Shown one piece after another: positions 1 through 11,674 of a stretch of DNA of 64,000 bases. A model generated the notes under the pieces. That model was given only the letters and a program-made list of their open reading frames with translations. It was not told the origin of the DNA and did no database searches. How positions within the stretch are numbered: the stretch's first letter is position 1; every line of letters starts with the position of its first letter. Made by a program: the position numbers and the translations under genes. This stretch comes from an uncultured Actinomycetota bacterium (lineage in GTDB: Bacteria > Actinomycetota > Humimicrobiia > Humimicrobiales > Humimicrobiaceae), in the NCBI GenBank assembly GCA_964610315.1, contig CAZSVM010000010.1, positions 18,762 to 82,761 of the forward strand. Reading direction: 5' to 3'.

Positions 1-1545
1 AGAATTATAAAGCGGATATGTTTAATAATATTGGATGGATGGGGGATTTCTAACCTGGTTAAAGGTAATGCCATCAGGTTGGCAAGAACTCCTAATATGG
101 ATAATTATTATAGAATCTACCCCAATGTAAAGTTAAATTCCTCGGGAGAAGCAGTGGGCCTTCCGGAAGGTCAGATGGGGAATTCGGAAGTGGGTCACCT
201 GAATATTGGAGCAGGCAGGATTGTTTATCAGGAGTTTACCAGAATAAACAAAGAAATTAAAAAAGGTACTTTCTTTGAGAATAAGGTATTGGTTGATGCT
301 GTCAATAAGGTAATAAAAGAAGGCAGCAGTCTTCATTTGATGGGACTGGTATCGGATGGCGGTGTACACAGCCATATCGACCATCTGAAAGCCCTGATTG
401 ATCTGGCAGCTGGTAAAGGGGTAAAAAACCTGTTTATTCATGCTTTTCTTGACGGAAGAGATGTCCCTCCCAGAAGTGCTATCCCTTATCTAAATGAAAT
501 AGATGATTATCTGAAAAAGAAGGGCACCGGGCAAATCGCTACGGTTAGCGGAAGATATTATAGTATGGACAGGGATAATAGATGGGAAAGGATTAAAAGA
601 AGTTACGATGCTCTGGTATATAGAAAAGGAAAAAAATTTAAAACGGCTGCAGAGGTTGTTGAATTATCTTATAGAGATAATGTAGATGATGAATTTGTAG
701 TACCGGCTATAGTAGAGAGTAATTTTAAAGAAAAGGCGGCAGTAAGTTCCGGTGACTCGGTAATATTCTTTAATTTCAGGCCGGACAGAGCACGTCAGCT
801 TACCCGGGCATTCATAAGCGGGAGTGAATTCGATAAATTCGATAGAGGAAAGCAGCCTCCAAAGATTTATTTTATATGCATGACTCAATATGATAAGGAA
901 TTCGATGTCCCGGTAGCATTTCCACCTGTAAAAATAATAAATACATTGGGAGAAGTTATATCGGTCAATAAATTAGAGCAATTAAGGATTGCCGAAACAG
1001 AGAAATATGCGCACGTAACTTTTTTCCTGAATGGCGGAATTGAGAAACCCTATCATGGTGAAGATAGAGTCTTGATACCGTCCCCCAGGGTTTCGACTTA
1101 TGACTTAAAACCAGAAATGAGTGCATATGAGGTTACAGATGAGGTAATAAGTAGGATTAAATTAAAAAAGTATGATGTAATTATATTGAATTATGCCAAT
1201 CCGGATATGGTGGGACATACCGGAAATTTAAATGCGGCAATAAAAGCAGTGGAAGCAGTGGATAAGTGTGTGGGTAGAGTGGTGGAGGAGTTAAATAAAA
1301 ATGATGGGCTGGCGATAATAACGGCAGATCATGGAAATGCAGAGGAGATGCTCAGCAGTGGTGATATGAAAGTTGTGACTGCTCATTCCACATCACCGGT
1401 GCCCTTTATAATTTGTAATACACAAGTAAAATTAAAAGATAACCATGGAAGTTTTAAATTAAGTGATATCGCACCTACCATATTGGATCTTTTAAATATA
1501 AAAAAGCCGAAAGAGATGACCGGAAAATCCCTTTTGTCTGCTTGA
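1..1545 (+). CDS. gpmI: 2,3-bisphosphoglycerate-independent phosphoglycerate mutase, 5'-partial (N-terminus lies upstream of the window)
   Basis: Frame 1 reads ...LIILDGWGI from nt 1 with no in-frame ATG; LIILDGWG is the conserved iPGM N-terminal motif. Full-length similarity to iPGM (GHLNIGAGRIVYQ, SDGGVHSH, ADHGNAE metal-binding motifs). Stop at 1545. Confidence 0.85.
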   Translation, partial: RIIKRICLIILDGWGISNLVKGNAIRLARTPNMDNYYRIYPNVKLNSSGEAVGLPEGQMGNSEVGHLNIGAGRIVYQEFTRINKEIKKGTFFENKVLVDAVNKVIKEGSSLHLMGLVSDGGVHSHIDHLKALIDLAAGKGVKNLFIHAFLDGRDVPPRSAIPYLNEIDDYLKKKGTGQIATVSGRYYSMDRDNRWERIKRSYDALVYRKGKKFKTAAEVVELSYRDNVDDEFVVPAIVESNFKEKAAVSSGDSVIFFNFRPDRARQLTRAFISGSEFDKFDRGKQPPKIYFICMTQYDKEFDVPVAFPPVKIINTLGEVISVNKLEQLRIAETEKYAHVTFFLNGGIEKPYHGEDRVLIPSPRVSTYDLKPEMSAYEVTDEVISRIKLKKYDVIILNYANPDMVGHTGNLNAAIKAVEAVDKCVGRVVEELNKNDGLAIITADHGNAEEMLSSGDMKVVTAHSTSPVPFIICNTQVKLKDNHGSFKLSDIAPTILDLLNIKKPKEMTGKSLLSA

Positions 1546-1675
1546 ATTATATGCTAAAAGATAGGTTTTGCAGATGTTCCATGATATAAAAATATTGTTT
1601 TTAATGCCAATTTTCTGGTAAAATATAGGCCAAAAGCCAATTTGAAGTTTAAAAAAATTGGGAGGAACTATAAGT

Positions 1676-1909
1676 ATGGGTTCTATTTTGCTGAATATTA
1701 TATTTGCTTTTCATATCGCTGCCAGTGTAGGATTAATACTCCTGATTCTCCTGCATGCAGGAAGAGGGGGAGGGGTTTCAGGATTATTCTCCGGAATGGT
1801 AGAGACTTTTGATGGAACGGGAATTGTGGAAAAAAATCTTGATAGGATTACTATTATATTGGGTTTAATTTTTACGGTTACCACCATAATGTTATTTATT
1901 TTTTTGTAA
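1676..1909 (+). CDS. secG: preprotein translocase subunit SecG
   Basis: Small membrane protein with a Gly-rich loop (HAGRGGGVSGLFSG) between two TM helices, typical of SecG. GGAGG RBS 8 nt upstream of ATG 1676; the ORF-track TTG at 1658 sits inside the RBS. Confidence 0.7.
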   Translation: MGSILLNIIFAFHIAASVGLILLILLHAGRGGGVSGLFSGMVETFDGTGIVEKNLDRITIILGLIFTVTTIMLFIFL

Positions 1910-2005: not shown

Positions 2006-3595
2006 GTGAAAATTAGTAAAAAACTATACGCAGTAATTGTAATATTTATTGTAGCAGCACTTATAAGCTCTGTTTTCATTGGCTGTAAAAAAGAGGAAAA
2101 GGTGGGAGGAACCATGAGGCTCTATATTCATGAGCCGGTGTCTCTCGACCCCCCGAACAGCTATGAAAGCGAAGGAATACAGGTAATAAGACAGATCTGG
2201 GACGGCCTGGTTAAATATGATCCTGAAACTTTGCAGGTGGTACCGGCCATTGCAGAATCGTGGGATGTCAGCGATGATGGTCTGGTTTATACTTTCCACC
2301 TGAAAAAGGGAGTAAAATTTCACAGTGGAAGAGAACTTGTAGCGGATGATTTCGTTTATTCCTGGTCGAGAGTTGCACAGGCAGCAACTGCATCTTATCT
2401 AGCTTATCACCTGGAACCGATTGTAGGTTATGATGAACTTCAAGCTGGAGAAGGTGATACCCTGGAGGGTGTAAAGGCTTTAGATGATTATACTCTGGAA
2501 GTAACCTTAAAGTACCCTTATGCTGATTTTGTTAATACACTCGGCCATGTGGTATTCTATCCTGTAGCAAAAGAAGATATTGAGCAGTGGGGAGATCAGT
2601 ATGCGGAACATGTAAACGGTACAGGTCCTTTTAAGTTTGTAGAATGGAAACATGATCAGTATATAGATCTTGAAAGAAATGACGATTATTACGGTGACAA
2701 AGCTAATCTGGAAAAAGTAAGATATACGATTTTTACTGATGAGAATACCGCATTTCTAGAATTTCAAGCCGGCAATTTGGAATATTGTGCAATTCCTCAG
2801 GGGAAAATACAATCCACATTAGATGATCCCGAATACGGAGATCTGGCTATTATCAAACCTTTGCTTGCCATTTATTATTTTGCCATGAATGTACAGAACG
2901 AACCATTCAAAGATAATCTGGCATTAAGAGAGGCTATAAATTATGCTATCGACAGGCAGAATATTGTAGATGTAATAAGTGAAGGTGTTCCCACCGTGGC
3001 TACCGGAATAGTTCCTCCGGGAATACCAGGATTTCAGGAAAATGCCTCTAAATATACTTATGACGTAGAAATGGCAAAGCAGAAGCTTGTAGAAGCTGGC
3101 TATCCTAATGGAGACGGTTTACCCACTCTTACATTCGGAATAAACATTGGATCAGGCCATGAATTAATTGCCGAAGCAATGCAGGCTGATCTGGCAGAAA
3201 TAGGTATAAATGTAGAAATACAGGGAATGGAATGGGGAGCAGCACTTGATGCCTTCAAGAATGGAGAAATCAGTTTCTTCAGATTAGGATGGATAGCTGA
3301 TTATCCTACCATGGATAATTTCTTATTCCCGTTATTCTATTCCGGATCGGCAGATAATTATACTGCATATAATAATCCCGAGGTAGACCAGATGTTGCTG
3401 GATGCCAGACAAACTACTGATGATAACCAGAGATACACTAAATACAGAGAAGTAGAGAAAAAAATAATCGATGAATCTGCTTTCGTACTTATTTATTTCT
3501 ATGGATCCAGACGTATTGTTCAGCCTTATGTAAGAGGTTTTGCACTTGATGCTATGGAGAATTATGATCTGAGCAAAGTCTGGTTTGAGAAATAA
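2006..3595 (+). CDS. oppA: peptide/nickel ABC transporter substrate-binding lipoprotein (SBP family 5, OppA/DppA-like)
   Basis: Lipobox FIGC after signal peptide. SBP_bac_5 motifs (WDVSDDGLVYTFHLKKGVKFHSGRELVADDFVYSW, LREAINYAIDRQNIV). GTG start with AAGGAGG RBS. First gene of oppABCDF. Confidence 0.85.
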   Translation: MKISKKLYAVIVIFIVAALISSVFIGCKKEEKVGGTMRLYIHEPVSLDPPNSYESEGIQVIRQIWDGLVKYDPETLQVVPAIAESWDVSDDGLVYTFHLKKGVKFHSGRELVADDFVYSWSRVAQAATASYLAYHLEPIVGYDELQAGEGDTLEGVKALDDYTLEVTLKYPYADFVNTLGHVVFYPVAKEDIEQWGDQYAEHVNGTGPFKFVEWKHDQYIDLERNDDYYGDKANLEKVRYTIFTDENTAFLEFQAGNLEYCAIPQGKIQSTLDDPEYGDLAIIKPLLAIYYFAMNVQNEPFKDNLALREAINYAIDRQNIVDVISEGVPTVATGIVPPGIPGFQENASKYTYDVEMAKQKLVEAGYPNGDGLPTLTFGINIGSGHELIAEAMQADLAEIGINVEIQGMEWGAALDAFKNGEISFFRLGWIADYPTMDNFLFPLFYSGSADNYTAYNNPEVDQMLLDARQTTDDNQRYTKYREVEKKIIDESAFVLIYFYGSRRIVQPYVRGFALDAMENYDLSKVWFEK

Positions 3596-3696: not shown

Positions 3697-3738
3697 ACCT
3701 GTTAATGTAAAATATATTTGAATTTAAGCTGTGTTATT

Positions 3739-4683
3739 ATGCTTTTTTATATTATAAGAAGAATACTGCAAATTATTCCGGTCATAATCGGGGTTACCCT
3801 GATATTATTTATATTGTTGTATATCATTCCTGAAGATCCGGCCAGATTGATTCTTCAAAAAGGAGCTACCGAACAAGCCCTGGAGAACCTGAGAGCAAAA
3901 ATGGGTATAGATAAACCCCTGTATGTACAGTACTGGAGATATCTGGAACAACTGGCCAGGGGTGATCTGGGCACATCTTACCGGTACAGGAGGTCGGTAA
4001 ACAGCATATTAGCCGAACATTATCCCAATTCTATAAAATTGGCTTTTGCGGCGATTGTTATTGAAATAATTATTGGAATAATGGCTGGGATAATTTCTGC
4101 GGTAAAAAAGTACAGTCTCTGGGATACCCTGGTCACCGTTTCTACCACCATTGCCGTCTGCGTGCCTGTCTTCTGGCTGGGAATGTTGCTTCAGGTGGTC
4201 TTTGGCCTGAAACTTAGTATACTGCCAATGTCAGGGATGGGTGACGGCAGTATAAGATATTATATATTGCCCGCAATTACCCTGGCTTCAGTGTCGACTG
4301 CTTTTGTAGCCAGAATGACCAGGAGCAGCATGCTGGAAGTTATGGGTAATGATTATATGACTACCGCTTATGCCAAAGGATTATCACAGTTCAGGGTAAT
4401 CGGAAAACATGCTTTAAAGAATGCTCTTATACCGGTGGTAACATTGATTGGATTAGACCTGGGAGCTCTTATGGGGGGAGCTATTCTTACTGAGACAGTC
4501 TTTAGCTGGCCCGGTGTGGGAAGAGTTATTTACCTAGCCATATTGCAAAGAGATGCCCCGGTGGTAATAGGGGGAACTCTGGTCCTGGTATTTATTTTTG
4601 TGATTATGAATCTTATTGTAGATATAGTATATGCCTGGCTGGATCCCAGAATTAGATATCATAGAAAAGAAATAAATGTTTAG
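3739..4683 (+). CDS. oppB: peptide ABC transporter permease (OppB/DppB family)
   Basis: Six TM segments and the EAA-like loop typical of BPD_transp_1. N-terminus MLFYIIRRILQIIPVIIGV matches OppB consensus, so ATG 3739 is preferred over the track TTG at 3718. Confidence 0.85.
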   Translation: MLFYIIRRILQIIPVIIGVTLILFILLYIIPEDPARLILQKGATEQALENLRAKMGIDKPLYVQYWRYLEQLARGDLGTSYRYRRSVNSILAEHYPNSIKLAFAAIVIEIIIGIMAGIISAVKKYSLWDTLVTVSTTIAVCVPVFWLGMLLQVVFGLKLSILPMSGMGDGSIRYYILPAITLASVSTAFVARMTRSSMLEVMGNDYMTTAYAKGLSQFRVIGKHALKNALIPVVTLIGLDLGALMGGAILTETVFSWPGVGRVIYLAILQRDAPVVIGGTLVLVFIFVIMNLIVDIVYAWLDPRIRYHRKEINV

Positions 4684-4692
4684 TTTATAAAT

Positions 4693-5610
4693 ATGTATCC
4701 TGATAACAAAGTTGAACAAGATAACAACAATAAAGTAATTACAGAAATAGTTCCTGAGATTAAATACACCCGGTCATCTTTATATAAGGATGCCTGGAAA
4801 AGACTCAAAAAAAATAAACTGGCAATGGTTGGCCTGGGAATTGTGATAATGCTTATATTGATTGCTATATTTTCAAGCCTTATCGCTCCTTATAATCCTA
4901 TTGCAAGAGTAAAGGAAGAATCGTCACTTTCCCCGGGCAGAGCGCATATTTTTGGCACCGATTTGCTGGGAAGAGATATTTTTAGCAGGGTAATATATGG
5001 AAGCAGAATTTCAATAATGGTAGGTGTTGTTGCTGTGGGTATATCGGTCATTATCGGCTTATTCTTAGGTGCCTTGTCAGGATATTTTGGAAATGTATCG
5101 GACGCTTTCATAATGAGAATTGCTGATATATTTTTTGCTTTTCCTTATATTCTGGGAGCTATAGCCATAATGACTGTTCTGGGTCCCGGCATCGTAAATA
5201 TATTCATTGCCATTGGTATTTTAGGATGGGCTGCTTTTGCCAGGATTTTCAGGAGTTCAATTTTATCCATAAAAAATAAAGAATATATAGAGGCTGCAAG
5301 AGCACTTGGTGCCAGCAATTACAGGATTATCACCAGGCATATTTTTCCAAATGCATTCGCCCCTATAATAGTTTATGCCACCATGAATATAGGAACGGCA
5401 ATTATTGTTGAGGCGGCACTTAGTTTCCTGGGATTGGGGGTACAGCCTCCGACTCCTGCCTGGGGCAAAATGCTCGCCGAATCTCTTGATTATATCGATA
5501 TAGCTCCGTGGATGATGTTATTTCCGGGTTTAGCCATTGTTATAACCGTACTTGGTTTTGTTCTGCTGGGAGATGGCCTTAGGGATGCTTTCGATCCCAG
5601 GCTAAGATAA
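4693..5610 (+). CDS. oppC: peptide ABC transporter permease (OppC/DppC family)
   Basis: OppC_N-like region (SLYKDAWKRLKKNKLAMVGL) plus permease domain with IAIGILGWAAFARI motif. In operon order after oppB. Confidence 0.85.
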   Translation: MYPDNKVEQDNNNKVITEIVPEIKYTRSSLYKDAWKRLKKNKLAMVGLGIVIMLILIAIFSSLIAPYNPIARVKEESSLSPGRAHIFGTDLLGRDIFSRVIYGSRISIMVGVVAVGISVIIGLFLGALSGYFGNVSDAFIMRIADIFFAFPYILGAIAIMTVLGPGIVNIFIAIGILGWAAFARIFRSSILSIKNKEYIEAARALGASNYRIITRHIFPNAFAPIIVYATMNIGTAIIVEAALSFLGLGVQPPTPAWGKMLAESLDYIDIAPWMMLFPGLAIVITVLGFVLLGDGLRDAFDPRLR

Positions 5611-5657: not shown

Positions 5658-6674
5658 ATGTCAAACAACAATAAACTTTTAGAAGTAAAAGATTTAAAAA
5701 CTTATTTTTTTACTGACGAAGGCGTGGTAAAAGCTGTCGATGGAGTAAGTTTCGACCTTAAGTGCGGAGAAACTTTAGGTATAGTGGGTGAGACTGGTTC
5801 TGGAAAAAGTGTTACCGCACTTTCCATATTAAGGTTAATTCCTCAGCCTCCCGGTAAAATAGTAAATGGTGAAATAGTTTTCGACCACAAAGATTTGCTT
5901 AAAGTAAATCTTAAAACACTTCAGGATTACAGGGGAAACAGGATTTCTATGATTTTTCAGGATCCAATGACTTCATTGAATCCGGTATATACTATTGGAA
6001 ATCAAATAATGGAATCCTTGATTATACACCAGAAACTTAAAAAGAATTCAGCTAAAGTAGAGGCTATAAAACTTCTGGAAACGGTAGGTATCGCAGAGGC
6101 AGAAAGCAGACTAACCAGCTATCCCCATGAATTTAGCGGAGGAATGAGGCAGAGAGTTATGATAGCTATGGCCATAGCAAATGCTCCGGATATATTGATA
6201 GCGGATGAACCTACCACTGCTCTTGATGTGACCATCCAGGCCCAGATACTGGAATTAATAGACGAATTAAAATATAAAACAAATTCATCAATCATTTTAA
6301 TTACCCATGATTTAGGGGTCGTTGCCAAATATGCCAAAAGAGTAATGGTAATGTATGCAGGAAAGGCAGTCGAATTTTCTACGGTGGATAATATTTATTA
6401 TAAACCGTTACATCCTTATACTATAGGGCTTATGAATTCCATAACCAGGCTGGATAAAAGTAAAGAAGAAAGGTTGAGGCCAATAGAAGGATCTCCTCCC
6501 AGTCTTATAAATTTACCGAAGGGTTGCGCATTTAAAAACAGATGTGCTTATGATAAAGGAGAATGCGGAAATATGTATCCTCCATTGATTGAGGTTGAAG
6601 AGGGGCATTATGTTGCCTGTTATAGAATGAAAGAAATACAGGAAGAAAGAGCTAAATTAAAGTCAAAGTCATAA
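5658..6674 (+). CDS. oppD: peptide ABC transporter ATP-binding protein (OppD/DppD)
   Basis: Walker A GETGSGKS, signature FSGGMRQRVMIA, Walker B ILIADEPTTALD, and a C-terminal oligo_HPY extension. Confidence 0.9.
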   Translation: MSNNNKLLEVKDLKTYFFTDEGVVKAVDGVSFDLKCGETLGIVGETGSGKSVTALSILRLIPQPPGKIVNGEIVFDHKDLLKVNLKTLQDYRGNRISMIFQDPMTSLNPVYTIGNQIMESLIIHQKLKKNSAKVEAIKLLETVGIAEAESRLTSYPHEFSGGMRQRVMIAMAIANAPDILIADEPTTALDVTIQAQILELIDELKYKTNSSIILITHDLGVVAKYAKRVMVMYAGKAVEFSTVDNIYYKPLHPYTIGLMNSITRLDKSKEERLRPIEGSPPSLINLPKGCAFKNRCAYDKGECGNMYPPLIEVEEGHYVACYRMKEIQEERAKLKSKS

Positions 6675-6677
6675 GTT

Positions 6678-7676
6678 ATGGAAAATAATGTCTTGCTAGA
6701 AGTAAAAAACTTAAAGAAATATTACAGTTTACACGGCGGATTTTTTTTACAGAGAAGTGCCGGGATAGTAAAAGCAGTGGATGATATTAGTTTCTATATT
6801 AATGAGGGGGAAACATTCGGATTGGTAGGAGAAAGTGGCTGTGGTAAATCGACCACGGTAAGGGTTATATTAAGGCTGACTCCTCCAACCAGTGGATCGG
6901 TTATGTATAACGGTAAAAATATTTTTAAACTTGATAGAAAACAGATGTTTAAAACAAGAAGGGAGATGCAGATAATTTTTCAGGATCCTTATGCGTCTCT
7001 TTCACCAAGAATGACCATAGGGGATATTATAAGCGAACCTATGGAGATACATAAAGTTGGAAATAAAAAAAGCAGGATGAAAAAAGTAAAAGAATTATTA
7101 AGTACTGTCGGACTTAATCCCGAGCATATAAACAGGTATCCTCATGAATTTAGTGGAGGCCAGAGGCAGAGAGTGGGAGTCGCAAGAGCTCTGGCTTTAA
7201 CTCCAAAATTATTATTGTGTGATGAACCGGTATCTGCTCTGGATGTATCTGTTCAGGCTCAAATATTAAATCTTCTGGCGGATTTACAGAAAGAGTTTAA
7301 TTTAACCTATTTATTTATTGCTCATGATCTGTCCGTGGTAAAGCACGTAAGTGATAGGATAGGGGTTATGTATCTTGGAAAGCTGTTTGAAGTAGCCAGG
7401 AGTGAAGATCTTTATAAAAAACCACTTCATCCCTATACTATGGCGTTGTTATCTGCAATTCCTATCCCCGATCCTGAACTGGAAAGAAAAAGAAGAAGAG
7501 TTGTTCTGGAAGGGGACGTACCTAGCCCCATTAACCCTCCTTCAGGCTGCAGCTTTCATACAAGGTGCCCTAATGCTCAGGACATTTGCAGTAAAGAAGA
7601 ACCGGAATTAAAAAATTACTCAAAAGATGATAATCAGCATCTGGCTGCCTGTTTTTTTGCAGGGAAACCTATATAA
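6678..7676 (+). CDS. oppF: peptide ABC transporter ATP-binding protein (OppF/DppF)
   Basis: Walker A GESGCGKST, signature FSGGQRQRVGVARA, Walker B LLCDEPVSALD, and a C-terminal Cys-containing oligopeptide domain. Confidence 0.9.
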   Translation: MENNVLLEVKNLKKYYSLHGGFFLQRSAGIVKAVDDISFYINEGETFGLVGESGCGKSTTVRVILRLTPPTSGSVMYNGKNIFKLDRKQMFKTRREMQIIFQDPYASLSPRMTIGDIISEPMEIHKVGNKKSRMKKVKELLSTVGLNPEHINRYPHEFSGGQRQRVGVARALALTPKLLLCDEPVSALDVSVQAQILNLLADLQKEFNLTYLFIAHDLSVVKHVSDRIGVMYLGKLFEVARSEDLYKKPLHPYTMALLSAIPIPDPELERKRRRVVLEGDVPSPINPPSGCSFHTRCPNAQDICSKEEPELKNYSKDDNQHLAACFFAGKPI

Positions 7677-7701
7677 GTAAGTAATTATTTAAGGCAAATA
7701 A

Positions 7702-9429
7702 ATGATTAGACTGAACAAAATAATATTGATTATTTTAATACTTTTGATATTTATAAGCGGCTGCCTCTATTCTTGTGAATATAATGATCTGGGACTTTTT
7801 AATACTGTAGTAGAAGAAAATGATACCAGTAGTGTAAATAATGCCGCCGAAGAGCTGGATATAAACAGTAAAGATTTTTTCCTGGAATCAAAAGAAAAAC
7901 AGATGGATAAGAATCCTCTAAGTGATATCAATGTAAGGAAAGCCATATTTTACGCAATAGACAGGGAAAGAATCGTAAAGGAACTGTTTGGCGAATACGG
8001 AGAGGTGCTCAATAGTTTGTTTGAAAAGAATTCCGGCTATTATTACTCTTCCTGGTCGGAGTATAATTATGATCCGGAAAAGGCAAAAGAATTTTTAAAT
8101 AAAACAGGGTATGGCATTGATAATCCGCTGTACATCACCATAGGTTCTATAAGTGATAACAGTACAAAGCAAATGATAGAGGAAATGATTAAAGAAGATT
8201 TAAGTAAAATTGGAATAAAGATATGGATTTTTAATAAAACTTCGGAAGAATGGTATAGAGATTGTGTTGGAAAAGGCGATTATGAGCTAGGCATATGGTC
8301 AATATATAATTTTGATGGAAGCAGCTTAAGTTATAATTTTAGTTCCGAAAAAATACCGCCTCTGGCAACGGAAGAGAATAAAAATTGTGAGAATTTTTAT
8401 TGGTACAAAAACACGGAAGCTGATGTAATTCTGGAAAATATTGCAAATGAAAACAACATTGAGAGAAAAAAAGAGCTAACGGATGATTTTCAGGATATAC
8501 TGGCTAATGATGCAGTAATCCTGCCTCTGTACAGCAGAATATATGCTATTGCCTACAATAATAAGAAAATAAAGAATATGGATATCAGTGTCAAAAATAA
8601 CAAGATATTCTTTAATATCGAAAAGTGGAATTTGTATGGTGAGGAGCAAACAGATGAAGATAAAACAAATGAAATTATTATCGGGTTTGAAGGAGAAGAT
8701 TACGAACCAGCCAATCTATTTAGTTCGGATTATATAAGCGACCTTTTAATGAAAGGTTTATGGGAAATCAATGAAAACGGTGAATATGAAAATGTATTGG
8801 TAGAAACGGATTCTTCTCCGGGAAATAATTTAAACAGTGCACCGAATCAAAAGGTTAAAGTTGTACTTAAAGATGGAATATTCTGGGAAGATGGGAATCC
8901 CATTACGTCAGAGGATGTAAAATATACTTATGATGTCGTTCTTAAAAATGAAAATATCTTGAATATTGATGAGGATTACTCCAAAGTTGGAGAAATTGAA
9001 GTAATAAATGAAAAAGAATTTAACATCATTTTCAAAGATGAAATTAAAAATTGGAAAAAACTTTTTGGATTTATTTTCCCCAAAGGATCACTGGATGAAA
9101 AAGATATAAACAATTTTTCTGTGGAAGATATTGTAGCAAGCGGTCCTTACAGGATAGATCAATATGTAAGCGGGGAATATTTATTACTAAAGAAAAATGA
9201 TTACTATTTTAGAGAAACACCTGACATGGATAACATAAAAATTTTATTTGACACGGATATTAATAATCTTATAAGCATGCTCAAAGATAAAGAAATAGAT
9301 TTACTAAGTATTCCCTTCAACTTGGATTTAATAAAAGGTCTGGATGAAAATAAGGATTTTAATTTATTGATTAAATCGGGTGATCTTCTGGAGCATCTGG
9401 CTGTTTGTTTGAAACCTAAAGAGAAATAG
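7702..9429 (+). CDS. lipoprotein built from a circularly permuted family-5 SBP: signal/lipobox, then SBP C-terminal half, then SBP N-terminal half
   Basis: Lipobox FISGC. Residues ~60-330 align to the C-terminal half of the upstream OppA (DKNPLSDINVRKAIFYAIDRERIV ~ DNLALREAINYAIDRQNIV; ends ...FFNIEKW ~ ...KVWFEK). Residues ~330-575 align to the OppA N-terminal half (WEDGNPITSEDVKYTYDVVL ~ FHSGRELVADDFVYSWSRV). The protein C-terminus ...CLKPKEK corresponds to the OppA position immediately before the point where this protein's mature N-terminus begins. Confidence 0.6.
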   Translation: MIRLNKIILIILILLIFISGCLYSCEYNDLGLFNTVVEENDTSSVNNAAEELDINSKDFFLESKEKQMDKNPLSDINVRKAIFYAIDRERIVKELFGEYGEVLNSLFEKNSGYYYSSWSEYNYDPEKAKEFLNKTGYGIDNPLYITIGSISDNSTKQMIEEMIKEDLSKIGIKIWIFNKTSEEWYRDCVGKGDYELGIWSIYNFDGSSLSYNFSSEKIPPLATEENKNCENFYWYKNTEADVILENIANENNIERKKELTDDFQDILANDAVILPLYSRIYAIAYNNKKIKNMDISVKNNKIFFNIEKWNLYGEEQTDEDKTNEIIIGFEGEDYEPANLFSSDYISDLLMKGLWEINENGEYENVLVETDSSPGNNLNSAPNQKVKVVLKDGIFWEDGNPITSEDVKYTYDVVLKNENILNIDEDYSKVGEIEVINEKEFNIIFKDEIKNWKKLFGFIFPKGSLDEKDINNFSVEDIVASGPYRIDQYVSGEYLLLKKNDYYFRETPDMDNIKILFDTDINNLISMLKDKEIDLLSIPFNLDLIKGLDENKDFNLLIKSGDLLEHLAVCLKPKEK

Positions 9430-9655: not shown

Positions 9656-9707
9656 ATAAACTTACCATATGTGATTGAAATGATAACCCTTAATTAATGA
9701 GAACATG

Positions 9708-10121
9708 CTATCTAATTTCTTCTGATTTTTTATATGCAATTTCTGCTTCTCTGTATTTACCCTGTTTCTGCAGTAATATATGTAGAATTTTCCAGGCATC
9801 TTTATTATTTTCGTCCAGTTTTATTAATTCTTTAATAATTTCTTCGGATTGAAGATATTTGTTTTGTTTGAAAAGAGTGGCACCCAGACAGAGTAGAGCA
9901 TCGGTATATTTCTCATCTAATTCCAGGGCTTCCCTGCATGCCAGTTCTGCTTCATCATATTTTCCCTGTCTGTAATAATTAATGCCATAATAATACCACG
10001 CTTCTTTAAACTTTCTATCTAGCCTCAGGGCATCGTGACAGGCTCTTTCCACCTCATCATATTTGCCTTGTTTGATAAGTATTTCAATAAAATATATCCA
10101 TGCGTCCTTTTCATTTTCCAT
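9708..10121 (-). CDS. tetratricopeptide-repeat protein
   Basis: Three to four 34-aa TPR units with recurring W-Y-G-Y...G-K-Y-D/R-E-A pattern (AWYYYGINYYRQGKYDEAE). Confidence 0.6.
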   Translation of the reverse strand: MENEKDAWIYFIEILIKQGKYDEVERACHDALRLDRKFKEAWYYYGINYYRQGKYDEAELACREALELDEKYTDALLCLGATLFKQNKYLQSEEIIKELIKLDENNKDAWKILHILLQKQGKYREAEIAYKKSEEIR

Positions 10122-10213
10122 ATTTTAAACCAATCCATAAAACGAAATAAATAAATAAGTTAAAAATCAGATTTTAAATCATATACATAACTATTTTTAA
10201 CCGGTAATAGATG

Positions 10214-10444
10214 TCAATGGCACCTATAACCGGGCTTTTTATATAAAAGATGCTCTTTTCCAATTATATCAGTTTTGTAAACTTCTTCAGCCCATTTTTC
10301 CTCAGGTACTTCTTCAATAGATACCGAAATAGATTCTTCAGTAGTATCGATGGTATCTTTTAAAGCTTCTACAATTCTGCCAGTCATCTGTTTTTTTTGT
10401 TTTTCTGTTCGGCCTGGCCATAATTTAACTATTACATGAGGCAT
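10214..10444 (-). CDS. 4-oxalocrotonate tautomerase family protein
   Basis: Begins Met-Pro (MPHVIVKLWPGRTEKQKKQ), where Pro1 is the catalytic residue of the tautomerase superfamily. About 76 aa. GGAGGG RBS lies just upstream of this ATG; the track's longer start MEGSK lies inside the RBS. Confidence 0.7.
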   Translation of the reverse strand: MPHVIVKLWPGRTEKQKKQMTGRIVEALKDTIDTTEESISVSIEEVPEEKWAEEVYKTDIIGKEHLLYKKPGYRCH

Positions 10445-10669
10445 TTTACTGCCCTCCATTATTTTTTTAATAATTATAAATGATAAAAGGATATATTAAA
10501 AAGGGGAAAAGTTTTTTATAATTAAAAGTATATCCGGAAAAAATATTTAATCAAAATTCTTATGAATAGCGAGTTATTCCCATAAATAATTTATTATTAT
10601 CATTGATGGTTATATAATTATAATATCAGTATGTTTCTGAGATAATTATTGAAGAGAAAAGGAAGAAAA

Positions 10670-11674
10670 ATGAAAGAAGCATATCTATATAAAAAAATTA
10701 GCAAAAATAAAGTAAGATGTAATCTTTGTAATCATAGATGCATTATTAAAAACCAGGATGTAGGTAAATGCTGTGTAAGAAAGAATATTAATGGGGTACT
10801 TTATTCTATGGTATATAGGAAATTAATTGCTGAAAATTCCGATCCCATTGAGAAGAAACCATTGTTTCATTTCCTGCCCGGTACCAACTCCTTATCAATA
10901 GCTACTATGGGATGTAATTTCAAATGTTTTTTTTGTCAGAATTTTGACATCTCACAAGCTCCATCTGATTTTGATAGAATCGAGGGAAAGGATGTTCCGC
11001 CCGAGGTGTTGGTTGAACATGCTCTGGCATACGGAGATAAAAGTATTTCATATACCTATACCGAACCAACCATTTTCTTCGAATATGCTTATGATACTGC
11101 AAAGCTTGCCCATGAAAGGGGACTTAAGAATGTTTTTGTAACCAATGGTTTTATGACCAGAGAATGTTTGGAAATGATAGAGCCCTACCTGGATGCTGCC
11201 AATGTAGATTTAAAGAGTTTTTCTAAAGACACTTATAAAAAGAAGATTGGGGGAAGGCTGAAGCCGGTTCTGGATAATATTATCTTAATGAAGAAGATGG
11301 GTATCTGGATTGAAGTTACTACTTTAATAATACCGGGAATTAATGATTCTAAGGATGAATTGCAAAAAATAGCGGAATTTCTGATGGGAATTGATGAAAG
11401 TATACCCTGGCACATAAGTGCTTATTACCCGCAATACAAATCAAATATCCCGCCAACTGGTGTGGAGAAAATAAAAATTGCTATGGATATAGGGAAGGAA
11501 GCAGGATTAAAATACGTATATGGTGGAAATATTTCCGGCAGCTGGTATGAGAACACTTTCTGTCCGGAGTGCAATTACAGGTTAGTTGAAAGAACTGGGT
11601 TTTCCGTTTTTAATAATAAGTTGAAAAAAGATCTATGTCCAAATTGTGGCAAAAAAATAGAAGGAATATTTTAA
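10670..11674 (+). CDS. radical SAM enzyme, AmmeMemoRadiSam-system type (AmrS-like) / PFL-activase-like
   Basis: N-terminal Cys-rich motif VRCNLCNHRCIIKNQDVGKCCVRK, then DPIEKKPLFHF and radical SAM cluster GCNFKCFFCQN (Cx3Cx2C), C-terminal zinc ribbon CPECN...CPNCG. Pattern recalled from AmrS-family proteins. Start set at the second ATG. Confidence 0.6.
   Translation: MKEAYLYKKISKNKVRCNLCNHRCIIKNQDVGKCCVRKNINGVLYSMVYRKLIAENSDPIEKKPLFHFLPGTNSLSIATMGCNFKCFFCQNFDISQAPSDFDRIEGKDVPPEVLVEHALAYGDKSISYTYTEPTIFFEYAYDTAKLAHERGLKNVFVTNGFMTRECLEMIEPYLDAANVDLKSFSKDTYKKKIGGRLKPVLDNIILMKKMGIWIEVTTLIIPGINDSKDELQKIAEFLMGIDESIPWHISAYYPQYKSNIPPTGVEKIKIAMDIGKEAGLKYVYGGNISGSWYENTFCPECNYRLVERTGFSVFNNKLKKDLCPNCGKKIEGIF

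Follow-up and report, generated by a model that had tools for sequence, protein, structure and literature searches.

A circularly permuted family-5 substrate-binding lipoprotein encoded downstream of oppF in uncultured Actinomycetota of the class Ca. Humimicrobiia

Family-5 substrate-binding proteins (SBPs) rank with the most abundant receptors on bacterial surfaces, and structural biology and biosensor design rely on them heavily. In the stretch of DNA analysed here (64,000 nucleotides of contig CAZSVM010000010.1 from an uncultured actinomycetotal bacterium, hereafter the window), an oppABCDF operon is followed by an open reading frame (ORF) of 575 amino acids (aa) at 7702..9429 (+), which starts 25 nt past the end of oppF on the same strand and which a preliminary description had read as an SBP lipoprotein with its two halves in exchanged order. 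Is this ORF a genuine circular permutant, and what might such a protein do beside an ordinary OppA and its transporter? The first part of the question can be answered with near certainty: the ORF is a family-5 (cluster-C) SBP lipoprotein, circularly permuted, real and functional. That reading of the gene ending the operon is borne out by swapped alignments to canonical SBPs, by its fit to a doubled canonical sequence and by structural matches that each cover one half only.

Against the Pfam profile SBP_bac_5 (PF00496; profile length 368, gathering cut-off 32.4 bits), the ORF scored 190.8 bits (E = 5e-56) in two stretches, the best of which paired ORF residues 64-215 with profile positions 209-362 of 368. 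BLASTP against the window's own OppA aligned ORF 72-176 with OppA 300-405 (E = 7e-10) and ORF 389-538 with OppA 99-264 (E = 2e-6), and these two comparisons, both proposed in the preliminary description, place the segments in swapped rather than normal N-to-C order. With phmmer, all 75 of 75 family-5 SBPs from the PDB were matched in the same swapped order, ORF ~60-295 corresponding to their ~250-510 and ORF ~318-563 to their ~9-265 (for example, DppA (1dpe) 271-471 paired with ORF 68-272, and YliB 40-265 with ORF 334-563); NCBIfam models also matched the ORF in this order. A hidden Markov model (HMM) of the family aligned to a doubled OppA sequence as one collinear domain of 88.5 bits, along a path in which profile positions 73-538 ran through OppA 301-529 and then OppA 1-264, whereas with one OppA copy as target it split into two matches scoring 56.0 and 37.2 bits. 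The ORF carries the sequence definition of SBP_bac_5 but departs from the canonical N-to-C order of its elements, and it combines what a natural circular permutant is recognised by in sequence: swapped halves, doubled-sequence collinearity and a single cut site.

The position of the cut was resolved with P0131, the closest canonical-order relative. ORF residue 569 aligned with P0131 residue 316 and ORF residue 67 with P0131 residue 317, so that the end of the permuted chain (...LEHLAVCLKPKEK) and the point where its N-terminal homology begins (QMDKNPLSDINVRKAIFYAIDR) are adjacent at P0131 316|317 (WEHLGFCQLNETPLRDVKVRKAICYAIDR), as the preliminary description had stated from its own alignment to OppA, and at most ~5-13 residues are possibly represented twice at the cut. 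The old termini were joined without loss of core elements, WNLYG being connected to EIIIGFE by ~10 residues.

Searched against 5.8 billion clustered proteins, the ORF had at least 120 full-length relatives of 545-617 aa, which come from NCBI, JGI, ENA and Logan assemblies and share 45-72% identity with it at 96-100% coverage. When the ORF and 120 listed relatives (121 sequences) were put through an order test, the halves were swapped in 114 of the 114 sequences that gave at least two high-scoring segment pairs (HSPs) against a canonical OppA, and none was collinear. Related genomes, where the preliminary description had advised looking for the same architecture, did contain it: with each GTDB species represented by a single genome, 57 loci were detected, 55 of them permuted and some of these on contigs of 0.3-1 Mb, and the hosts of the 55 were all uncultured Actinomycetota of the class Ca. 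Humimicrobiia (names including Ca. Hydromicrobium, Ca. Humimicrobiaceae and Ca. Calidifonticultor). Cut, junction and C-terminus are common to the full-length homologues, which span 38-72% identity overall, and to the 55 species genomes. The gene is under clear purifying selection, about twofold more relaxed than that on the transporter genes: dN/dS, the ratio of nonsynonymous to synonymous substitution rates (Nei-Gojobori, 13 close genome pairs), was 0.10-0.25 for the permuted gene, 0.045-0.11 for oppA and 0.03-0.11 for oppB/D/F in the same pairs.

Followed along the chain (all features on the + strand), the protein opens with a predicted signal peptide and lipobox (LYSC; aa 1-25, 7702..7776), recognised by a hydrophobic h-region and a conserved Cys, and residues 2-23 are helical in the AlphaFold 2 (AF2) model. 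The lipoprotein signal of the preliminary description stands, its assignment of the lipidated Cys does not: C21 of the FISGC motif occurs in only 6 of 126 family members, and the family alignment identifies C25 as the predicted lipidated residue, conserved in 123 of 126 (the other three being gaps) in the context L-x-[S/A]-C. A flexible tether follows (aa 26-59, 7777..7878), with a predicted local distance difference test score (pLDDT) below 50 at residues 23-51; it is rich in D/E/S/N and variable in the family alignment except for conserved CEYxDLGL and EFFLExKxKQ stretches, and its end (residues 57-66) is predicted to be helical. Lobe 2, the canonical Domain III (aa 60-272, 7879..8517), matches OppA 300-405, DppA 271-471, YliB 273-481 and Pfam positions 209-362, and carries an invariant NKNCENFYW motif with C229. 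Alignment and AF2 then place hinge strand 2 and the old C-terminal segment returning to lobe 1 at aa 273-313 (8518..8640), with a long modelled strand (273-286) where hinge strand 2 aligns; the old C-terminus, ...FFNIEKWNLYG, aligns with the very last residues of canonical SBPs (OppA to 529) and pairs with the terminal segment of P0131, ...MFWNTQEWYFGK (...WNTQEWYFGK).

The junction linker EEQTDEDKTN (aa ~314-323, 8641..8670; pLDDT below 50 at 315-320) is acidic or polar, unconserved and ~8-30 aa long across the family, and the signal peptide of a presumed second copy is absent there. Lobe 1, made up of the canonical N-terminal strand, the additional domain typical of cluster C and the remainder of the lobe, was delimited by multiple alignments (aa 324-552, 8671..9357): it begins with the old first strand EIIIGFEGEDYEPANLF, which pairs with P0131 NLIIGYNQEPVMLNPF, and matches OppA 40-264, YliB 40-265, AppA 23-244 and positions 11-231 of a NikA-type profile. 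The chain ends in a long C-terminal strand (aa 553-575, 9358..9429) that runs from hinge strand 1 into the first lobe-2 strand and then into CLKPKEK and the stop; AF2 models a long strand at 553-568 where hinge strand 1 aligns, and the segment pairs with OppA ~278-300 (LAIIKPLLAIYYFAMNVQNEP) and with P0131 ...WEHLGFCQLNETP. In all members shown, the new C-terminus (569-575, ...CLKPKEK) has the same end point to within ±3 residues. By alignment, the cut is placed in the loop between this C-terminal strand and the first lobe-2 helix, in a region with the conserved motif N-x-x-x-P-[FL]-x-D...VR-x-A-I-x-x-A-I-D-R.

In cluster-C SBPs a pair of antiparallel hinge strands, one on either side of Domain III, connects the lobes; in EppA these are Gly295-Pro302 and Pro531-Glu538 (PMC7312458). 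Because hinge strand 1 ends shortly before the cut, the permuted protein probably still has its two-strand hinge, and the membrane tether has probably been shifted by the permutation from lobe 1 to lobe 2. The idea of a hinge-cutting, single-crossover protein was dropped once strand 553-568 had been mapped to hinge strand 1 plus the first lobe-2 strand, and no structural element of the canonical fold seems to be missing. AF2, run on a 41-sequence alignment, gave a single confident fold (mean pLDDT 83.1, predicted template modelling score (pTM) 0.79), its weak spots being the tether, the junction linker (315-320) and a loop at 374-381, and we infer from this model a closed bilobed packing of both halves. 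Every solved cluster-C SBP aligns to one half only, and none is collinear with both. The Cys of the lobe-2 motif, C229 (8386..8388), is conserved in 125 of 126 members though the protein is extracytoplasmic, and the only other frequent Cys is C569 (9406..9408) near the new C-terminus; a conserved C229-C569 disulfide stapling the new C-terminus is unlikely, as C569 is Ser in 29 of 126, and the invariant free C229 might be ligand- or metal-related.

The locus is anchored by gpmI (31..1545, +) and secG (1658..1909, +), which tblastn synteny across the compared loci (L001-L067) recovered in all relatives and outgroups. ORF calls with Pfam and NCBIfam matches then give oppA (2006..3595, in canonical order), oppB (3718..4683), oppC (4693..5610), oppD (5658..6674) and oppF (6678..7676), all on the + strand. 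No terminator-like site was seen in the 25-nt gap between oppF and the permuted gene, a scan for promoters and terminators gave counts at chance level and was uninformative, and no other family-5 SBPs or Opp-type permeases were found within the 64-kb window. The next gene, for a 137-aa TPR protein (9708..10121, -), is convergent on the permuted gene and belongs to a segment (9708..11674) with genes for the TPR protein (-), a tautomerase-family protein (-) and a radical-SAM protein (+); these neighbours are kept beside the permuted SBP in many relatives, with or without oppABCDF. The order secG-oppABCDF-permuted SBP occurs in most of the 55 species genomes, the window included, and the constant neighbour across them is gpmI-secG rather than the transporter, so the opp-operon setting given in the preliminary description is true of the window but does not hold family-wide.

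Two divergent members, L049 and L062, have secG followed by the permuted SBP and then by a different oppB'C'D'F' set, whose products are 36-60% identical to the window's proteins; the permuted SBP heads this operon (L049 10139-14117, L062 10093-16291). In L062 another canonical SBP gene follows the set, and in L049 the oppD' and oppF' reading frames lie in broken pieces. This arrangement was considered as an ancestral state orthologous to the operon of the canonical-order locus L009 and found no support: the L062 genes are 32-57% identical to those of L009 versus 36-60% to those of the window, and the L049 and L062 sequences nest inside the permuted clade.

What could the protein do? We lean, with moderate confidence, towards a role as a transport receptor that captures a ligand and docks on an Opp-type translocator. 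The permuted protein would be a working, lipid-tethered bilobed receptor that closes on its ligand, its chain passing from the signal and Cys25 through a ~35-residue disordered tether into lobe 2, over the hinge to the part of lobe 1 that was once C-terminal, through the acidic linker that replaces the old termini into lobe 1, and finally into hinge strand 1 and a strand donated to lobe 2. It would present its ligand to the translocator as a second receptor beside OppA; here the translocator would be OppBCDF in cis, with the permuted gene co-transcribed as the last gene, and where the neighbouring genes have been deleted the protein would dock on a translocator encoded elsewhere (in trans).

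Several observations weigh against this account or narrow it. In about a dozen loci, L025, L027 and L032-L034 among them, secG is followed by the permuted SBP without adjacent opp genes, and in six of these loci pseudogene scars lie between the two, namely remnants of OppA residues 4-25 (73%) and 501-529 in L007 (~9660-9860) and L012 (~7640-7830), an internal OppD fragment (residues 73-111, 79%, E = 1e-16) in L014 and L017 (7886-8002), and, in L031 (7827-7913) and L058 (7842-7928), a piece from the interior of OppF that an in-frame stop interrupts (E = 1e-10). Because these scars lie between secG and the permuted gene, the absence of oppABCDF is secondary and reflects at least three independent deletions. 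The permuted gene is full-length and constrained in opp-less genomes (for example, dN/dS 0.14 for L033-L034); its outliving of these deletions weakens a strict tie to that transporter, and since it stayed intact through them its function may not depend on an adjacent OppABCDF. It also evolves about twofold faster than oppA/B/D/F, with 45-49% identity versus their 66-86% in L004/L008. In OppA and DppA, the alpha-amino group of the bound peptide is anchored by the aspartate in GW.AD; this Asp is present in the window's OppA (GWIAD), and its position is Ile or Leu in the permuted family, an indirect hint that a classical peptide with an unblocked N-terminus is probably not what the protein binds. 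An attempt to assign the ligand through NCBIfam was abandoned, as no equivalog cut-off was reached: the best model, Opp4A, scored 113 bits versus a cut-off of 650, the cut-off of OppA proper (NF011684 and relatives) was not reached either, and PRK15104 was not among the matches. Finally, the closed packing and the lobe-2 placement of the C-terminal strand are predictions from pTM, secondary structure and alignment.

Some of the same observations favour the principal alternative, in which the SBP fold was kept and the ABC importer role lost, leaving a translocator-independent lipoprotein that acts as a regulator or scaffold, as a chaperone or as the partner of a sensor. That the gene outlasted the transporter beside it several times and that it evolves faster both speak for it, and a precedent might be sought in LpqW (Rv1166; PDB 2grv), an actinobacterial family-5 SBP-like lipoprotein with a non-transport role in cell-envelope glycolipid biosynthesis. 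This functional analogy is speculative: LpqW matched in canonical order and had no specific sequence affinity to the permuted protein, its resemblance being no stronger than that of any other cluster-C SBP. The permuted gene is, moreover, tightly coupled to oppF on the same strand in most genomes, the window's among them, and Gram-positive bacteria commonly have orphan SBPs served by a translocator from another locus. We regard a translocator-independent role as unlikely, though worth keeping in view, and the permuted architecture combined with a transport-receptor role as a likely best explanation overall.

How the permutation arose was approached through its relatives. Apart from fragments, the full-length collinear matches that HMMER recovered on 1.84 billion representatives amounted to just seven clusters at 50% identity, for which reason the permuted type is judged to be one compact family; beyond these seven, the listed matches were in canonical order except three (P0162, P0195 and P0214). 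In a tree of 17 diverse permuted members, computationally de-permuted and aligned with canonical relatives, the permuted sequences formed one clade in 300 of 300 bipartition bootstraps (a count that replaced the 47% given by the rooted-clade bootstrap of Biopython; a few distances were saturated, with NaN warnings), and its sister group (215 of 300) was a canonical-order set that includes P0131. SBPs of the P0131 type matched both halves at 29-32% identity (E = 1e-31 to 1e-43), compared with 17-32% identity in short HSPs for the window's OppA, which is ruled out as the parent and, on these alignments, is a distant paralogue. In L009 and L010 the gene order is ...gap-pgk-tpi-gpmI-secG-P0131-SBP2-oppBCDF, and a canonical-order SBP directly after secG was also found in Ca. 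Aquicultor secundus (L066) and in L067. (At 9723-9956 in L009/L010, a called 77-aa ORF (-) overlaps a tblastn secG homologue (+) at 9754-9942 with 44% identity, a probable strand mis-call in the source annotation.) The simplest reading is a single origin: one event in the ancestor of Humimicrobiia permuted a canonical SBP gene where it stood, next to secG.

The route of tandem duplication, fusion and truncation put forward in the preliminary description is plausible and the most likely one. A canonical gene would have been duplicated in tandem, the copies fused in frame with loss of the second copy's signal peptide, and the product truncated at both ends; the junction, in which a complete old C-terminus is followed by a short linker and an old mature N-terminus without a signal, fits this sequence of events. 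Two observations qualify it: OppA is not the parent, the P0131-type lineage being closer, and no duplicated or fused tandem intermediate was found among the best 150 representatives, which counts against the route and leaves room for a different one, in which a split SBP gene was rejoined in reverse or halves of two neighbouring SBP paralogues were joined. Downstream of secG, L009 carries a tandem pair of SBP paralogues, each of which shares ~30% identity with the permuted protein, and for Treponema pallidum TpMglB-2 the authors likewise considered that the permuted part had been gained from another gene (PMC4990184). Against such a joining, the halves abut at a single canonical position, the order of segments at the junction is the one that duplication predicts, and both halves are similarly identical to the same relatives; we consider it improbable.

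The composition of the gene is unusual: N, K and E make up 30.1% of the protein, the highest value among the 42 window ORFs of at least 200 aa (median 23.1%) and in keeping with the extreme richness noted beforehand, and the GC content is 0.314 versus 0.37-0.42 for the opp genes. On the 982-kb contig of L063 (MFD09779.bin.1.47), gpmI, oppA, oppC and oppD were each matched in 2-3 broken pieces, which suggests indel errors of long-read assembly; the halves of the permuted SBP keep the same order there, and the contig is probably long-read support for the architecture. An artefact, be it an assembly error, the collapse of a tandem repeat or a pseudogene in decay that derives from two ordinary SBP genes, has only the unusual order and the low GC in its favour and is vanishingly improbable, given the independent homologues with this architecture (566-617 aa) in at least 120 clusters from four sources and in 55 species genomes, the identically placed termini and junction, the purifying selection and the confident fold prediction.

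No natural permutation of an OppA, family-5 or cluster-C SBP was found in the open-access literature, which cannot prove novelty, and no naturally permuted family-5 SBP was found in the PDB copy searched. There is slightly more than an even chance that the family is the founding natural cluster-C permutant (a 'cluster Cc' topology), fixed once in a class-level lineage and kept through loss or replacement of its translocator. If so, either promiscuous docking on translocators in trans or a new translocator-independent role would follow, and the survival of the gene after at least three transporter deletions raises the question of which of the two applies. The family offers a natural experiment on how a hinge-bending two-lobe receptor fares under chain re-wiring and tether re-siting, a clean one because there are syntenic canonical outgroup relatives, a single origin, at least 120 descendants and measurable selection. 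Under automated annotation the permuted members go by 'hypothetical protein' or 'ABC transporter substrate-binding protein', and it would take checks aware of domain order to flag them. For a specialist, the finding of a permuted cluster-C SBP should be moderately surprising.

A second permuted SBP_bac_5 type was encountered outside the window, in high-GC, Acidimicrobiia-like lipoproteins (P0162, P0270-P0276, P0195 and P0214). Here residues ~48-215 correspond to canonical ~375-513 and residues ~217-566 to canonical ~20-372, the cut falling at canonical ~373, inside lobe 2. P0162 is 57-63% identical to the canonical-order P0277 and P0281, versus 46% to the permuted P0195 and 40% to the permuted P0214, so that recurrent permutation or reversion is a possibility within this type. 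The Acidimicrobiia permutation is independent of the one in Humimicrobiia, and because this second type exists, circular permutation seems to recur in family-5 SBPs. Together the two types would make circular permutation a recurrent natural evolutionary mode in a very large family and would provide two naturally validated sites for new termini, useful to sensor engineers.

Compared with canonical cluster-C SBPs (OppA, DppA, NikA/NikZ, GsiB/YliB, AppA and EppA), the Humimicrobiia protein is homologous over essentially the whole fold and, by alignment and AF2, probably has their three-domain, two-lobe elements with a two-strand hinge. Like Gram-positive SBPs it has a predicted export signal and lipid anchor, and like canonical cluster-C SBPs its gene adjoins genes for an OppBCDF-type permease and ATPases, in the window and in most species genomes. 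Unlike them, it has lobe 2 first, the old termini fused by a linker, the new termini just after hinge strand 1 and the anchor on lobe 2 instead of lobe 1, and unlike the peptide-binding members, the permuted family is without the GW.AD aspartate. That a bilobed fold can accommodate new termini is known from periplasmic binding proteins permuted by design for biosensors, in which short linkers likewise connect the old ends; the papers retrieved on this subject deal with circularly permuted GFP inserted into binding proteins. Such designed proteins come from the laboratory and belong mostly to clusters B, D and F, whereas the Humimicrobiia case is natural, ancient and fixed in its lineage.

The sole natural SBP permutation that we found in the literature is TpMglB-2 (Tp0684) of T. 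pallidum, a naturally permuted cluster-B glucose-binding lipoprotein for which the class 'Type Ic / Cluster Bc' was proposed, which still binds its ligand and closes on binding, and whose family spans several taxa (PMC4990184). In that protein, three N-lobe strands were moved to the C-terminus and a fourth hinge crossing was added (PMC4990184). The Humimicrobiia protein resembles TpMglB-2 in being a natural permutant and a membrane-tethered ABC binding lipoprotein that forms a family. It differs in belonging to cluster C (SBP_bac_5) rather than to the MglB-like type I proteins of cluster B, with no MglB homology, and in that about half of the protein is swapped with an apparently unchanged number of crossings; the two permutation events, one in cluster B and one in cluster C, are unrelated.

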